DNA of 64,000 bases, from contig CAXXVZ010000002.1 of the NCBI GenBank assembly GCA_963678065.2, forward strand, positions 544,001 to 608,000, in the 5' to 3' direction. The stretch is from Treponemataceae bacterium (GTDB lineage Bacteria > Spirochaetota > Spirochaetia > Treponematales > Rectinemataceae). The stretch's first letter is position 1. Every line of letters begins with the position of its first letter. Made by a program: the position numbers. Shown here piece by piece: positions 23,601-35,600 of the stretch.

Positions 23601-26600
23601 GCTTGCTCTTCAGGGTATCGTCGAGCCCGACGACGACCGTGAAACAGTCCCGGATGCCGAGCGCGTCGAGACTCGCGGTCCCGACGGAGCATGGATTGTT
23701 CGTGACGAGGGCGAGGGGGAAGCGGGCGGCCAGGGAGGAAAGGGCGCGGGCGAGTTCGGGATCGGGCCGGAGCCACTCGGCGGGTCGGATGCCCTCCTCG
23801 CGCCAGCGCGCACTCGTGGCGATGTCGACGCCGAAGGCGGCCGAGAGATTGGCCATGCTGGTCGGCGGCAGCCCCACCGCGGCGCGTTCAGCCTTGAGAC
23901 GCGCGAGTTCGGCCCGGGCGCCGGCCAGATCGGTCCCGAGGAAGCCGGCGAGCCGCTCTTCCAGTATTCTGGCCTGAAAATCCGTGTAGGCCGCGTTCGT
24001 GTACAGCGTGTTGTCGAGATCGAAGATCAGGGCAGAAATCTGCCCTGGCAGGCGAAAAACCTTCACAGATCGTCGGCGGGTTCGAAGGGAATGGGCTCGT
24101 CGAGCCCCTCCTGTCCGGCCGGAGGCTCCTGCTTCTGCGCCGCAAAGGCGTGCGCTTGCTGGGAAGTCGCCGGCTTCACGCCGGACTGCTTGTCCATCTG
24201 CTTCTTGATCAGCTTGGCGACCACGTCGCGGTTGTCCAGCATCGAGGAGAGCGAGCGGTCGTGGTGGATGAGGCTGATGATCTGGGCGAACAGCCCCGTG
24301 ACGTCTGCCTGGATGAACCACTCGCGGTCCGAGAGCTCGGTGTTGCGCACGGCGTTGGTCCCGATGATGCGGTAGAACAGTCCCTGCTTGTAGGCGGCGT
24401 CGAAGTCGTTGATGGCGTTTCCGGAAAAGAAAGGCAACGAGACCGCCGAGATGACTTTGGTGGCTCCCATTTCTTTCAGGTTCTTCATTCCCTTGATGAG
24501 GGTTCCGCCGGTCCCGATCATGTCGTCGGCCATGAAGACCGTCTTGCCGCGCACGTCGCCGAGGAGCTTCATCTCGCTGATGTTGGTCTCGGAGGCGCTC
24601 TTGGTGACCTTGGAATAGTCGCGCTCCTTGTAGAGGAGGGCGAGCGGGCGCTGGAAGGCATTGGCGTAGAACTTGTTGCGGTCGACGGCGCCGGTGTCGG
24701 GCGCAAGCACGACGAGGTCGTCTTTCTTTATGTCGATTATGCCGATGAGTTTTTCGATGATCTGGAAGGAGGCGTGCAGGTTCTCGACTCTCAGGTTCGT
24801 GAAGCTGTTTTCGATCTCCCGCGAGTGGATGTCGAGGGTGATGATGCGCGAGACGCCGAGATTTTCCAGCATCTGGCCGACGCGGGCGGCGGTGAGGCCC
24901 TCGCGTCCCTTTTTCTTGTGCTGGCGGGCGTAGGGATAGGAGGGCAGGACGAGATTGACCCGCCCGGCGCCGGCTTCCATGGCCGCATCTATCGTGACGA
25001 AGAGGGAGAATATGTGGTCGTTGACGGAAAATTGCTTGTGCGTCGTGCCCTCGTTGAAGGCGATGGGCTGATGGTTTTCGATATCCTGGAAAATGTAGAG
25101 ATCCTTGCCCCTGACCGATTCGAGGATCTCCGTCTTGACCTCTCCGTTGGCGAAGAAGGTGTGCCGTGTGTTGATCTTGAGGCGGGGAGGGCGATACTGG
25201 TTCACGTTGCCGGGGATATAGGAGAGGCTCGAATTGGTATCCTGCGCGAAGTTGATCTTGCGGGTGACCAGTTCCTGGGAAAGGTGGTAGCGGGACGCGA
25301 GAGCTGCGGTCTTTCGGTCGAAACGGCGCTTGTAAATCCCGGCGAGCCTGCGGATCACCTGATCCGCGAAAGCCTCGCCGCCGGGGCAAGCAAGAATTCC
25401 GAGCTTTGAAGGATCAGAGTAGCTCATGGGTACTGCCTTTTTGGGTGGGACTTGGTCTTCAGCCTACCCGCGCGCTGTACCTTAGTCAATGCCCCGCATT
25501 GCCTCATAATTTTTCGAGACGAAAGAGTGAGTCTGCCTCATAAGTAAATCACGACGAAGGGCCCCGCATTGCCTGTCATCGGTTATTGTCCCATCACTTG
25601 TTATATCTTCATGATGTGCGAGGGGGACCGCGGATCGCCTGTCAGAGCAGCTTCCGGCTGCTCACCCTCACGTTGATGATGACAGCGAGGGCGATGACGA
25701 GGCCGACGAACGCGTCCTGGATGTACGCGTCGGTTCCGAGGAGGACCAGGCCCGTCCGCACCTCGGCCATGATGAAAGTCCCTATGAACGAGCCGATGAT
25801 GCTTCCGATGCCGCCCGACATCGAGGTGCCGCCGATCACCGCCGCCGCTATCGCCTCGAGCTCGAGACTGGTTCCCTGCGTTGGGGTGACCGTTTTCAGG
25901 TATCCGAGCGAAACAAGGGATGCGAGCCCGGCCGCCCCGGCGGTAAGAAGGAAGCAGATCCTCTTTATGTGGACGGTCTTGATGCCGGCGAGCTCCGCGG
26001 CGTCGCGGTTGTCTCCCGACGCATACACCCGGACTCCGAACGTCGTGCGGTGCAACACGACGTACATCGCGATCCCCCACGCGAGCACCCAGAAAACAGG
26101 GACAGGAATCAGTCCAAACAACTCCGAACGGCCCATGATGCCGTAGAAGGGGTTGTCGTCGAATGTGGATATCGGCTGCCCCTGCGAGAGGACCATCGCG
26201 ATGCCCCGAAAGACCATCATCGTCGAGAGTGTGGCGATGAAGGAATTGATTTTTGTGGTTGTGACGAGGAGTCCGTTCAGATAGCCGAGGATGAGAGCGC
26301 TCGCGAGACCAAGCACGGCCGAAAGCCAGATGTTCAGACCGAGATTCTTCGTCAGAAGTCCGGTGACAACTCCGGTGACGGCGAATATGGCGCCGACGGA
26401 CAGATCGAATTCTCCGGCGATGATGAGAATCGTCATCGACATCGCGATGATCCCGAGCCCCGCCGTCTGGCGGAGGAGGTTGAAGAAATTGTACGCCGTC
26501 AGGAAGACCGGCGACGTGAGCGAAAAAAATATCCCGATGAGTATGGCCGCGGCCACTACGCCGAAGTCCCGGAATCCGACAAAGCGCCTGATGACGGAGC

Positions 26601-32600: not shown

Positions 32601-35600
32601 GAATCATCAACAAACTTGGCGGATCCATCGCCGCGGAGAACATCGAACCGCGGGGATGTCGATTCACCGTCCGCATACCGGCCTGTGGCTGAAGCGGGAG
32701 AGGAGAGACAATGGACCTTTGCGTCGGACAGGAAATCGACGAGATCGTCGAAAAGGGTATGGCTGACCGGGTATTCCCCGGCATCGTCTGCGGCGTATGG
32801 AAGGACGGGAGGGAAGTCTACAGCCTCGTCAAAGGTCACGCAGTGCCGCCCGACGACCCGGAACTCGCCGCGCGTCCGATGGCGCGCGACACCGTTTTCG
32901 ACTTGGCCTCCCTCACGAAGCCTTTGTCCACGGCGATACTCGTCATGAAGGCTGTCGAGGCGGGGGCCCTCAGGTTGGACGACACTGTTTCCCGCTTTTT
33001 GCGGGGCCCCGCCCCGGGATACGCTTCGCCGGCCGCCTCCGCCATCCCCGTCCGTGAGCTGTTGACTCACACGGGCGGGCTTCCCGCCATTCCGGCCCTC
33101 GAAAAATACTTCCCCGATCCTTTCCACATCGACCGGAACGAGGCTGTTGCGAGGCTTCTCGCCATCGCGCCCGAGCGCCCTTTCGGAGAGTCGGTCGTCT
33201 ACTCCTGCACGGGATTCATGCTCCTCGGTCTCATCCTTGAGAGCGTCTCCGGGCTGAGTCTGGGTGAACTTTTCCGTCGCGAACTCGCGCGGCCGCTGGG
33301 GCTCGCGGGCGCGGGATTCGCGCCGGAGCTCGGGCAGGACCCGCGGGATGCCGGGCCGGACACAGCCTCGCGTGGATCGGGTCCGGCCCTCTTCCCCGGC
33401 GCGGCGCCGACCGAGTTCTGCGCCTGGAGGAAGCGGCGGATCTGCGCTCAGGTCCACGACGAGAGCTCCTGGTGCCTCGGCGGACAGGCGGGGAATGCGG
33501 GGTTTTTCGCCACGCTCGACGATGTGGCGGCGATCGCCTCGATCTATCTGCAGGAGGGCCTGTCGTGGGGAGGGCGCGACGGGACACAGGGCGTACGGAT
33601 TCTCGAGCGGGACACTGTCCGTCTCATGACCACTCCTCAGACAGAGGCCGCCGGAGAGCGAAGATCCTTGGGCCTGCGCCTCCACGATCAGGATACGCTG
33701 GACGGGCCGGCCTGGCCCGACTCGAGCTTCGGTCACACGGGTTTCACCGGCACGAGCGTGTTCATGGATCCCGGAAGCCGCCTCATGGCTGTGTGCCTCA
33801 CGAACCGGGTCTACTATGGCCGCGAACAGACCGTGCTGAAAATGCCGGTGTTCAGGCGGGCCTTCCACACGGCGGTGTACAGGCGCTTTGCCGGAACACC
33901 CGCTCTCTAGTGCGCGTCACAGCCCCGCCTGGTCTCCGGAGGCGGGGACCAACCTGACTGTCTTGATCTCGAAGGCGCGGAAATCGAGGGATATGGCGCC
34001 TCCACTGATGGACAGCACGCGCCCTCCTTGTTCCAGCATATCGGTCTCGACGGCGCTCTCCAGAGCGAAATCCGTCCGGAGAGCGCAGCGGGTCGCCGTA
34101 CCGTAGCACTCGTAGAGCCTCAGCATGATGTCCCCCGAACCGTCTTCGGGAGGTTTTGCCGTTTCGAGCACGACGCCGGGCTTGTCCAGGACAAAGATCG
34201 AGCGCGATCCGTCGCCGGGGTCCGGGACCGGGCGCGGAAGAACGGGAGAGTTGAGATTGTAGGCTTCCCGGACAAGGCCGCTCTCTCCGAGAGGCGAGTT
34301 CCAGAAATACAGAGCGTAGGTGAACTCCTGGATGCCGCGGTCGGCCTGCATGTCGGGCACCCACGCGGCTTTCAGGAGCGTGAGGGCGATGATTGAGTCG
34401 CGCACGCTCACCCCGTACTTGCAGTCGTTGAGCAGGGCGAAACCCCGCCCCGGTTCGGCGATGGCCGTCCACTTGTGCTGACTGACCTCGTAACGGTCGG
34501 CGTCGTGCCGCCGGGAAGAGTGGGCGGGGCGCCTTACGTGGCCGAACTGGATTTCGCTCAGGGCCTCGTCCGCGCGGAAGGCCACCGGGAAGGCGACTTT
34601 GAGGAGTCTGTGGTTTTCCCTCCAGTCGATGCGGGTGCGGAAATCCACCCGAACCGAACCGCGGCGCAGAACAATCTCCTGAGTGAGTCCGGAGTCCGCG
34701 ATGCTCCGCTCGATCCTGACGCGGGCGACGAGCGGCCCCTTGTCCAGAACGATCATCCGGGCTGGGCTGTCCAGGACAACCGGCACGCTCTCGTACATGC
34801 TGTCGATGTCCCAGGCGTCGTAATTCGTCGTGACGTCTTTGTAGAGCCTGAACTCGTTGCAGTTTCCGGCGGCGAGTTCCCGGCCTTGCGTGAGGTCGAA
34901 TATGCTCGAGATCGAGCCGAAGCGGTCCAGGACGATGCGCGTGAGGCCGTTGGACATGACGATGCCGGTGCCCGAGTCGGCAACCTCGACATCGCAGACG
35001 CCGGCGCAGAGGCCGGCGTTGGGGACTTCGACATCGCGTGCGCCCGCGCCCCGGGGCGCGCCGCCGACTGCCCGCGGCTCCGTGTCGGATACCGTTGCGC
35101 CCTCCCCGGCCGGCGCTTCACCGCTCCCGGATAAAAGTTCGCCGCCGCCGGGCACCATTCTCTCGCGATCAGGCAGGATCCTGATCGTCGACCAGCCGCA
35201 AGGCGGCAGGTCGACGAGAGCGAGGCTTCCGGCCTCCGTTTCCTGGACCGGCAGAACTTTCCTGCCGGTTTCTTCCCATGCTTTCCTGCCGGCATCTTCC
35301 CCCGGTTCTCCATCGGCGACGCGGAAGGCGCTCGCGCCCTTCGGGATCGGGACGAGCTCGGCGCGCTCCCACGAGAGCGAATTGTAGACGCGAAGGAATT
35401 CCGGGGAGCGGGAATCGCCGCCGTGCGGCTCATCCTCGGCGCACAGGACAGCCTCGAGAGAGGCGAGCGCCAGATCGCGCACAGAGCGGGCGTCGCGGGC
35501 CACCCCAGCGAGTTCGGCTTCGGCCTCCTCGTGCACGCGGCGGATCGAGGCTCCGGTGATCACATCGTGGAAATGGTTCATGAGAAGGCTTTGCCAGATG

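Follow-up and report, generated by a model that had tools for sequence, protein, structure and literature searches.

Why should a soluble histidine kinase begin with a nucleotide-binding domain of the kind that drives sugar importers? The question is raised by a locus in the stretch of 64,000 nucleotides from a Treponemataceae bacterium analysed here (the window), where the genes of a kinase and a sigma54-dependent response regulator are divergent from a CUT2 operon encoding binding protein, two-domain ATPase and permease (Table 1). The survey's finding had described a 610-aa protein without membrane segment, placed behind a sigma54 regulator and back-to-back with the importer, all of which is borne out. 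It had further read the protein as a sensor that docks on the permease, takes the position of one half of the ATPase and reports flux.

Table 1. Features of the kinase-importer locus (positions in the window)
Feature	Position	Strand	Remarks
CUT2 (RbsC-type) permease, 329 aa	25642..26631	-	PF02653 5e-41; GguB/RbsC best NCBIfam match, below cut-off
Two-domain CUT2 ATPase, 496 aa	26656..28146	-	
Sugar-binding protein, 317 aa	28298..29251	-	Peripla_BP_4
Sigma54 -24/-12 promoter-like site TGGCATGAAACGTGCA	29342..29357	-	score 6 of 7
Two palindromic TGT-N11-ACA sites, candidate activator sites	29516-29532, 29547-29563		from sequence
Sigma54-dependent response regulator, 445 aa	29557..30894	+	TTG start; REC (Asp53), AAA+ (GAFTGA), Fis-type HTH
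Soluble histidine kinase, 610 aa	30860..32692	+	ABC nucleotide-binding domain - PAS - HisKA (His400) - HATPase
Kinase ABC domain, residues 8-243	30881..31588	+	related to first half of CUT2 ATPases
Kinase PAS domain, residues 266-376	31655..31987	+	highest variability within the family
Kinase core, HisKA 393-450 and HATPase 499-607	32036..32680	+	AtoS/NtrB-like

Pfam recognised four domains in the kinase and no others: ABC_tran (residues 25-173, 1e-19), PAS (266-376), and HisKA (393-450) and HATPase_c (499-607), both above cut-off. Its peak 19-residue hydropathy was 1.54, compared with 2.27 in the permease, and a value of 1.9 was exceeded by only 3 of 123 full-length family representatives chosen at 50% identity (the diverse set). 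The kinase ORF, whose start overlaps the 3' end of the REC-sigma54 AAA+-HTH_8 regulator gene, was covered completely and with zero mismatching letters by one contig from a run of another study, so the fusion is no assembly artefact. Contigs of RNA runs overlapped the binding-protein, ATPase, regulator and kinase genes patchily, which gives no measure of transcription or its level. An AlphaFold2 monomer (pLDDT 76, pTM 0.44; linker 234-258 below 50) together with Foldseek bore out the separate folds and not their relative arrangement. The serine hydrolase gene 3' of the kinase was rejected as part of the system, having zero homologues in 24 loci.

The catalytic core with its regulator resembles AtoS-AtoC and NtrB-NtrC, which likewise combine PAS-HisKA-HATPase with REC-AAA+-HTH, but AtoS has membrane segments as input where the kinase of the window has its ABC domain. 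The NCBIfam AtoS model gave 191 bits over residues 254-607 (cut-off 646) and the AtoC model 400 bits (cut-off 714), both far below equivalog level. The boxes of class I histidine kinases are intact, H400, N512, D544, G546, P560, G573 and G575 being present in 123/123 members of the diverse set.

The neighbouring importer is of CUT2 type. No other permease is encoded in the operon, so the permease is likely to be a homodimer. The first half of the ATPase has the Walker A sequence GENGAGKST and a degenerate signature, the second half a Walker A motif without its lysine and the signature LSGGNQQ. The best NCBIfam match of the binding protein was a rhizopine-type binding protein (157 bits, under the cut-off of 420). 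The sigma54 promoter-like site begins 106 nt upstream of the binding-protein start and faces the importer, the regulator has the REC-AAA+ (GAFTGA)-HTH build, and sigma54 itself is encoded in the genome: together these are the parts of a sigma54-dependent two-component system. A score of at least 6 on the importer strand recurred at 25/29 divergent loci, where 0.22 were expected, as against 1/29 on the other strand; it is because of this that the importer is the likely target of the regulator. Genome-wide, 2 of 33 CUT2 binding-protein genes had such a site, both adjoining a sigma54 activator. From these sequence features, the kinase-regulator pair is likely to switch on the importer genes. The TGT-N11-ACA sites overlap the regulator's own start; a loose pattern of this type occurred in 11/28 promoter regions, a count made without comparison with chance, and in a six-mer enrichment for activator sites the signal was dominated by the coding start of the regulator.

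How widespread is the design? The kinase family search gave 657 matches. ABC_tran had been claimed for all of the best homologues and was present in 119 of the best 120, the exception (P0108) being a 478-aa piece. Most loci were gathered by genome searches; two scans of sequence collections were swamped by general motifs and returned the full kinase at 6/80 and 2/80 loci, and the remainder, ordinary kinases or CUT2 ATPases outside the family, served as alignment depth and controls. Other clusters joining ABC_tran to HisKA, with GAF domains, exist. When longer fusions (1069-3050 aa) were looked for, the 35 matches included no kinase. In the fetched loci no ABC domain fused to another kind of output was identified; the three extra long ORFs there carry two ABC domains and were annotated no further. 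An ABC-ANTAR fusion found no support in the available part of PMC8164766, which ties ANTAR RNAs to ABC genes and there mentions no such fusion.

In the 54 loci examined the sigma54 regulator adjoined the kinase at 52, and a CUT2 permease lay within 6 kb at 49, as the survey's finding had led us to expect; the background was 8.7% of random stretches, and 1/18 among the other kinases of this genome. An importer ATPase was found within 6 kb at 48/54 loci. The pair is not bound to one importer lineage, as it has been re-paired with unrelated importers having XylF-, YtfQ-, RbsB- or rhizopine-like binding proteins. In the present genome an ordinary membrane HAMP kinase and a sigma54 activator flank a XylF-like importer, and elsewhere members of this importer clade have the soluble ABC-kinase in this position. 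As one importer clade pairs with either type, the ABC-kinase fills the slot of a membrane sensor. Up to three paralogous kinase-regulator pairs occur per genome, and in two genomes (G116 and G461) each of three pairs stands next to its own importer, which therefore calls for a substrate-specific input. Linkage by itself is no proof of contact, since the sigma54 promoter of the importer means that regulation partly explains it.

The ABC domain could, in principle, be a free sensor of energy state that reads ATP and ADP. The kinase is soluble, and in the diverse set the Walker A lysine (118/123) and Walker B aspartate (119/123) have outlasted the hydrolytic residues, both of which speak for this reading. 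However, the aromatic residue of the A-loop is found in 76/123 kinases compared with 99% of true CUT2 first halves, a genome with several paralogues, each at an importer for another sugar, would have more energy sensors than it needs, and an association with CUT2 systems only would be left unexplained. We therefore consider an energy sensor very improbable.

The origin of the domain points to the transporter. In phylogenetic trees the ABC domains of 49 kinases formed a single clade (support 99 and 97) nested within a group of CUT2 ATPases that takes in first halves and single-domain forms, away from second halves; the support for descent from this group was 96 with fasttree and 86 with IQ-TREE quick. 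On sequence evidence, then, the domain originates from the first-half/single-domain group. Its closest counterpart is probably the first half (NBD1) of RbsA, XylG, AraG or LsrA, with which residues 8-243 share intact Walker A and B motifs, the Q-loop motif and a degenerate signature. The Q-loop motif, which we take from known structures to be permease-facing in ABC importers, is retained in the family (G84 71%, I85 90%, Q90 94%, N103 90%, K/R158 92%); the kinase of the window has Ser158 where the family has Lys or Arg. The degenerate signature, correctly noted by the survey, is not specific to the kinases. LSGG occurs in 0/123 of them and LSEGNQQ in one, but the first half of an ordinary CUT2 ATPase (P0003, CSTAETQ) is degenerate as well, as the available part of PMC11466899 also describes for this class.

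In contrast to the permease-facing motif, the canonical residues of domain pairing (N43, P172, T173, Q152, M241/G243) are gone. Among 87 true first halves the Walker A Asn is present in 100%, the D-loop Pro-Thr in 100/84% and the post-signature Gln in 92%; the kinases have lost these together with the terminal M-x-G, whereas conserved, family-specific motifs mark the D-loop and the C-terminal helix (D233, L237, Y242). In a CUT2 transport ATPase two ABC domains are joined and form between them one complete composite site, but the kinase has a single ABC domain, no second half, and a chain that runs on into PAS and kinase domains. The near-invariance of catalytic residues, as claimed earlier, holds for close relatives, where Walker A K, Q-loop Q and Walker B D and E were each kept in 114/114 aligned homologues, the H-switch in 113/114 and the phospho-His in all. 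It does not hold in the diverse set: Q-loop Q was present in 92/123, Walker B E in 108/123, the H-switch in 82/123 and all six motif residues jointly in 64/123, compared with 100% of the 87 true first halves; the phospho-His (His400) stood in 123/123.

These residues bear directly on the idea that a single ABC domain of the kinase stands in for one half of the ATPase, forms a full active site together with the second half and reports flux. The kinase domain is indeed like a first half, which depends on the signature of the second; the kinase of the window retains GEHGAGKS with K47, Q90, D170/E171 and H203, and has no LSGG of its own. A swap would be geometrically easy only at two of the 54 loci (L110 and L220), where the ATPases are single-domain proteins. 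In 45/54 importers, however, both halves are fused in the importer's own two-domain ATPase, and the pairing residues N43, P172, T173 and Q152 are those that have disappeared. Moreover, one catalytic residue or more is absent from half of the diverse set, and neither the replacement of one half nor flux sensing is supported in the form proposed. Replacement of one half is accordingly quite unlikely. Because of the fused halves, the lost pairing residues and the incomplete catalytic sets, we favour replacement of the whole ATPase.

According to the model that we prefer, a kinase dimer would sit on both coupling helices of the permease next door and displace the entire transport ATPase, and a fraction of the permeases would thereby become receptors. 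Docking of the sugar-loaded binding protein outside would then move the permease, and the docked ABC domains would relay this movement to the kinase core by way of a conserved helix and the PAS domain. Once phosphorylated, the sigma54 activator would act at the promoter at 29342-29357 and induce the importer operon. ATP hydrolysis by the kinase's ABC domain would not be required. That a soluble kinase with an input like a CUT2 first half docks as a dimer in place of the ATPase, making the permease a receptor, seems to us evenly balanced. Adjacency of the two genes and a Spearman coefficient of 0.77 between kinase ABC-domain and regulator identities (37 loci; co-variation with the regulator 0.77-0.78) suggest phosphotransfer from kinase to regulator; importer activation, permease binding, replacement of the whole ATPase and the dispensability of hydrolysis are further steps that we infer.

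Docking on the permease, a claim of the survey, has some support and also evidence against it. A complex model of two permeases with kinase residues 5-250 scored 0.59, the best of three controls 0.01; the contacts agreed between runs to 91% or more, with a pLDDT of 78 or above for the partner. The mark for this score was reached by 116/157 solved complexes and 2/215 mismatches, with only 18/157 solved complexes, plus both mismatches, reaching it yet scoring no more than 0.60. The predicted complex may be taken as weak support for docking. None of the controls had an ABC domain, so any ABC domain might dock by likeness of fold, and with a single kinase domain modelled the dimer lay outside the model's scope. 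No relative of the CUT2 permease was found in the PDB at E 0.01. On the other side, kinase ABC-domain identity did not co-vary with that of the neighbouring permease (Spearman 0.06, 37 loci, one L061 kinase being matched to the wrong one of two importers), while true ATPase first halves gave 0.40. As a tight cognate interface should co-vary, this counts against docking, and with a generic interface cross-talk would be expected, as the genome encodes 42 CUT2-like permeases. The groove showed some excess likeness to the cognate ATPase, but it was slight (z 0.34; p 0.015 by permutation; 33 related pairs) and equalled by that of the N-terminal strand.

The missing co-variation could be understood if the kinase made no contact with the transporter and sensed a ligand in the cytoplasm, either the sugar taken up or something made from it, through the PAS domain or a remodelled ABC pocket, the importer being a target only. 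The high variability of the PAS domain (mean identity 0.26; 5/99 columns conserved at 80%) would be expected for varied ligands, the sigma54 promoter can account for the gene linkage, and two uncut loci (L106 and L108) have sugar-catabolic genes alongside and no importer within about 20 kb. But the PAS domain fails to track the importer as well (-0.01), the ABC domain is more conserved than PAS and keeps its permease-side motifs, the complex score leans weakly towards contact, and the origin of the input domain in the very transporter class that is regulated would be left unexplained. A purely cytoplasmic sensor is thus rather unlikely.

A kinase that binds the assembled, working transporter elsewhere, for instance on the cytoplasmic face of the ATPase, and reports its activity would fit the frequent presence of an importer ATPase and the remodelled D-loop and C-terminal helix. 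There is precedent in PstB-PhoU-PhoR, where PhoU acts on PstB (PMC6978683, available part). Against this stand the retained permease-side motifs, the permease complex that passes weakly, and the lack of tracking between the kinase and the neighbouring ATPase first half (0.12), and we regard such a mode of binding as unlikely. Docking in place of the ATPase remains our preferred reading; one locus (L210) has, immediately 3' of the kinase, genes for a binding protein and a permease but none for an ATPase.

Transporters that inform kinases are known from other systems. BceS is membrane-anchored and has no ABC domain, and the Pst regulon takes in the importer itself. In the flux-sensing module BceAB-BceS-BceR of Bacillus subtilis, according to the available parts of PMC4513084 and PMC6978683, the transporter acts as sensor for the paired kinase and the regulator controls the transporter genes, a likeness to the present locus in pairing histidine kinase and ABC transporter. 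BceAB, however, is a resistance transporter, whereas here a CUT2 (BPD_transp_2) sugar importer stands beside a soluble kinase with its own ABC domain and sigma54 output. In PstSCAB-PhoU-PhoR/PhoB of E. coli an ABC importer likewise informs a kinase that has no periplasmic sensor, but through a separate PhoU on PstB, and the kinase is membrane-anchored (PMC6978683, available part). The kinase of the window carries the transporter-type ATPase domain itself; no adaptor lies between importer, regulator and kinase in the window, and none was seen in the loci, though no search aimed at PhoU was made in them or in the genome. The SLC5/STAC kinases CbrA and CrbS and an ammonium sensor kinase join a transporter part and a histidine kinase in a single chain, as far as the available parts of PMC13022988 and PMC5764959 describe them. 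In these it is a membrane domain that is fused. By Pfam and hydropathy the present kinase has neither membrane transporter nor STAC domain; its fused part is of the kind of an importer's cytoplasmic motor domain, and the membrane portion would be a separate subunit that it borrows.

No description of an ABC-domain kinase of this design was found in the literature searched, though supplementary domain tables could list the architecture, and a borrowed ABC motor domain as kinase sensor is absent from the transporter-coupled kinases covered there (Bce, Pst-PhoU, CbrA). The wiring between kinase and importer seems to be unstudied, and the earlier suggestion of a separate class of sensor, linked with CUT2 importers and apparently not yet described, is supported. 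We propose, tentatively and with slightly less than even confidence, that a kinase dimer mimicking the ATPase occupies the coupling helices and turns binding protein and permease into a transmembrane sugar receptor, as a cassette movable among CUT2 importers for different sugars, and that the design, in view of the ABC_tran-HisKA clusters with GAF domains, may have arisen repeatedly. If the kinase docks, the conformation of an ABC importer would have a natural reporter, in a class without a permease relative in the PDB, and one could ask directly whether the coupling helices move when the binding protein docks and nothing else happens. With the predicted sigma54 promoter at hand, reporter assays could start at once. 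A docking kinase could also be the basis of a modular sugar biosensor, since re-pairing has brought the cassette together with importers of various sugars.

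The survey's finding had described a single protein in which an ABC ATPase domain is followed by PAS, HisKA and HATPase domains without a membrane segment, and Pfam and hydropathy confirmed this architecture. The maximum hydropathy over 19 residues was 1.54 in the window kinase compared with 2.27 in the permease, and it exceeded 1.9 in only 3 of 123 diverse members of the family (here called ABC-kinases). A contig from another study's run covered the whole kinase gene with zero differing letters. The start of the ORF overlaps the last 35 bases of the regulator gene. In the AlphaFold2 model (pLDDT 76, pTM 0.44) the individual domains were folded but their mutual arrangement was not. 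With Foldseek the ABC domain and the PAS-kinase part each had matches of their own, and no chain among the matches listed was described as containing both. A serine hydrolase gene (Pfam beta-lactamase family; 32711-33910, + strand) begins 18 bases past the kinase; its best NCBIfam match, PBP4B-like, was under the cut-off, and a homologue adjoined the ABC-kinase in none of 24 other loci. Immediately downstream of the permease gene, a ribose-phosphate pyrophosphokinase-like protein of 454 aa with additional sequence at both ends is encoded at 24063-25427 (- strand).

Features of the kinase-importer locus in the window
Feature	Position	Strand	Remarks
Permease, the only one	25642-26631	opposite to kinase	CUT2 class
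Two-domain ATPase	26656-28146	opposite to kinase	CUT2 class
Binding protein	28298-29251	opposite to kinase	CUT2 monosaccharide class; rhizopine-like
Sigma54 -24/-12 promoter-like site	29342-29357	importer strand	scored as in the 29 divergent loci
Sigma54 response regulator	29557-30894	as kinase	REC, AAA+ with GAFTGA, HTH_8
ABC-kinase ORF	30860-32692	+	610 aa; Pfam ABC_tran 25-173, PAS 266-376, HisKA 393-450, HATPase_c 499-607

A threshold of E 1e-40 was passed by 657 proteins among 8000 scored candidates. ABC_tran was present in 119 of the 120 best members, the sole exception being a 478-aa piece; P0216, a member of 851 aa, combines ABC_tran with two HisKA stretches and a single HATPase. Matches were found in at least 14/401 genomes of the phylum (three candidates scored per genome) and, in two further searches, in 5/20 genomes and in 17/121 relatives, all counts including the window's genome wherever it was searched. 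Up to three copies occur per genome. Named family records came mainly from Spirochaetota, plus one from KSB3, and family members in databases bear automatic labels only.

The claimed link to a sigma54 regulator and CUT2 importers held in a set of 54 kinases, some of them close kin, that remained once three duplicates and a single locus lacking the kinase had been dropped. The regulator adjoins 52 of them, the other two loci ending at contig ends, and a CUT2 permease lies within 6 kb of 49. As background in the window genome, such a permease was met in 8.7% of random stretches and near 1/18 other kinases and 1/12 other sigma54 activators. Of the five exceptions, three come from contigs that are cut or short; the other two, L106 and L108, are genuine, and their kinases adjoin sugar-catabolic genes. 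Two-domain ATPases are present at 45/54 loci and only single-domain pieces at three, one apparently a split gene. The binding proteins belong to varied families (XylF-like, YtfQ-like, RbsB-like, rhizopine-like in the window), and at E 1e-40 7/12 were assigned to none. The importers next to the ABC-kinases of L110:5706-8784 and L220:2626-8901 use single-domain ATPases of 262-281 aa. L061:1308-15961 contains two regulator-kinase cassettes back-to-back, with a separate CUT2 importer behind each.

At the 29 loci where regulator and importer are divergently oriented, a sigma54 -24/-12 site with a score of 6/7 or more was found on the importer strand in 25 and one with 5 or more in 28, compared with an expectation of 0.22 from resampled sequences and 1/29 on the regulator strand. 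Sigma54 is encoded in the window genome, where just 2 of the 33 CUT2 binding-protein genes have such a site: that of the window importer and that of the importer beside the other permease-near sigma54 activator. This second importer (G000:C4:781894-789366 in the window's genome, equivalent to L227:1895-9367) is XylF-like and accompanied by an ordinary membrane HAMP kinase, while its XylF-like clade is flanked by ABC-kinases in L221, L113, L115 and L061. Because of the promoter data and this exchange of kinases within one importer clade, the importer is likely to be the target of the two-component system, and the ABC-kinase occupies the slot of a membrane sensor. Fifteen of 52 regulators deviate from the GAFTGA-type pattern (L006, L061, L110-L112, L208, L209, L211-L213, L224), 12 of them having GAFTDA, GAFTNA, GAFTSA or similar; several of these loci have strong sigma54 sites nonetheless.

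Since regulation alone explains the gene linkage, the neighbourhood is weaker as proof of physical contact. The kinase might sense a cytoplasmic ligand without touching the transporter, which we consider unlikely. In one sub-clade (L106:9077-10915, L108:8987-10801, L107:1108-2949) the kinases have neither a Walker B Glu nor an H-switch, and two of the three loci (L106 and L108) have sugar-catabolic neighbours and no importer. An orthologue (74%) of the permease found at the sister locus is encoded elsewhere in the L108 genome; that of L106 has just 38% relatives.

A tree built from 197 domains placed the ABC domains of 49 kinases in one clade (support 99), nested in a group with 87 first halves of CUT2 ATPases and three single-domain CUT2 ATPases (96), while 25 second halves were separate (99). 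A 53-row IQ-TREE run agreed (kinase clade 97, wider group 86). Since the ATPases adjoining ABC-kinases were dispersed across CUT2 diversity, a local duplication is not the source of the kinase domain; by this phylogeny it arose once and was re-paired with importers. Kinases kept G84 (71%), I85 (90%), Q90 (94%), N103 (90%) and K/R158 (92%), a region that, in known structures of ABC importers, faces the coupling helix of the permease. Lost were N43, P172, T173, Q152 and M241/G243 (100, 100, 84, 92 and 89/90% in first halves), the first four being positions used in canonical head-to-tail pairing. Residues gained in the 123 kinases were H43 (86), K/R175 (84), D233 (105), L237 (108) and Y242 (113). 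The degenerate signature noticed in the survey extends through the family, LSGG being present in 0/123 diverse members. It is inherited from CUT2 ancestry, since P0003, an ordinary CUT2 ATPase, is likewise degenerate and the same is described for RbsA and NupO (PMC11466899).

The other ATPase motifs had been claimed to be near-invariant, which is true of close kin but not of the family at large. In an alignment of 114 close homologues, from which the query's match to itself, four near-copies and two short fragments had been removed, the residues K of Walker A, Q of the Q-loop and D and E of Walker B were each retained in 114/114 and the H-switch in 113/114. When 150 representatives at 50% identity were taken and 27 partial ones left out, the 123 full-length members retained K in 118, Q in 92, D in 119, E in 108 and the H-switch in 82; all six motif residues occurred together in 64/123, and an A-loop aromatic in 76/123. 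The phospho-His was present in 123/123. Because K, Q, D, E and H are retained in 87/87 true first halves, the ABC domain of the family is drifting towards a pseudo-ATPase, with the kinase core intact. That it serves as an energy sensor seems highly improbable.

It had also been proposed that the kinase replaces one ATPase half and senses flux. This we regard as quite improbable, since the importer already has a fused pair of ATPase halves, which occupies both coupling helices. Histidine kinases of the HisKA-HATPase class are dimers, so two ABC domains would be held side by side, in line with the pair of coupling helices that a permease dimer presents. We give about an even chance to a model in which the kinase dimer engages both helices, substituting for the entire fused-pair ATPase on a share of permeases. 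It would then detect how the permease changes when sugar-loaded binding protein acts on it, and signal through conserved helices around 231-273 to the PAS domain and kinase core, and the activator would induce the importer. In vitro, RbsA reportedly departs from RbsC in the course of its cycle; the docking site would thereby become free.

When two permeases (14-326) were modelled with one kinase ABC domain (5-250), an alignment being supplied for each, the score was 0.59, against 0.01 for the best of three controls. The runs agreed in at least 91% of contacts and partner pLDDT was at least 78; the tool gave no interface and graded the result weak. The score mark is attained by 116/157 solved complexes and 2/215 mismatches, and at or below 0.60 by 18/157 and both mismatches. 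No permease relative was found in the PDB at E 0.01, but because other ABC importers have been solved and the controls had no ABC domain, fold likeness may carry the score. Over 37 loci (one kinase-importer pair, at L061, mis-assigned) identity of the kinase ABC domain correlated with that of the regulator (0.77) but not the permease (0.06), compared with 0.40 for true first halves and permease; this counts against a tight cognate fit. In 33 pairs, related to each other, the groove resembled the cognate ATPase slightly more than expected by chance (z 0.34, permutation p 0.015; 0.09 and p 0.23 for the remainder of the domain), but the N-terminal strand was as cognate-like as the groove. Attachment to a working transporter at some other surface seems distinctly unlikely.

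The 5.3-Mb window genome encodes 40 two-domain CUT2 ATPases and 42 CUT2-like permeases but only one ABC-domain kinase, a disproportion that raises a question of specificity. At L210:6970-12159 the regulator and ABC-kinase are followed by a binding protein and permease with no ATPase behind, a complete importer lying upstream; at L207:15979-17877 there is a related additional binding protein-permease pair (45% alike). These pairs may simply share the upstream ATPase. At L126, a cut locus with a sister kinase, a binding protein also lies behind the kinase.

The claimed lack of a prior description was borne out within the literature searched: full-text search of main texts, judged mostly by the matches listed and with most subscription papers lying outside it, found no kinase with an ABC-domain input, nor did the available part of a transceptor paper (PMC11109136). 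In ESM Atlas the window's family is a cluster of 62 members (score 0.99), and leads below 0.9 comprise three further ABC_tran-HisKA clusters, of 852 aa (166 members, GAF_2 in 99%, mostly Actinomycetota), 826 aa (64 members, mostly Actinomycetota) and 515 aa (136 members); such a design may have originated separately in these clusters. ABC-kinases would work like the transporter-coupled kinases of BceAB-BceS (PMC4513084), Pst-PhoU-PhoR and DctA-DcuS (PMC6978683) and CbrA (PMC13022988), but they fall outside the Bce and CbrA-type groups by those membership criteria that were applied; in the window, no PhoU-like adaptor lies between importer, regulator and kinase. We place the family within transporter-coupled two-component sensing, its ABC domain being a new kind of input.
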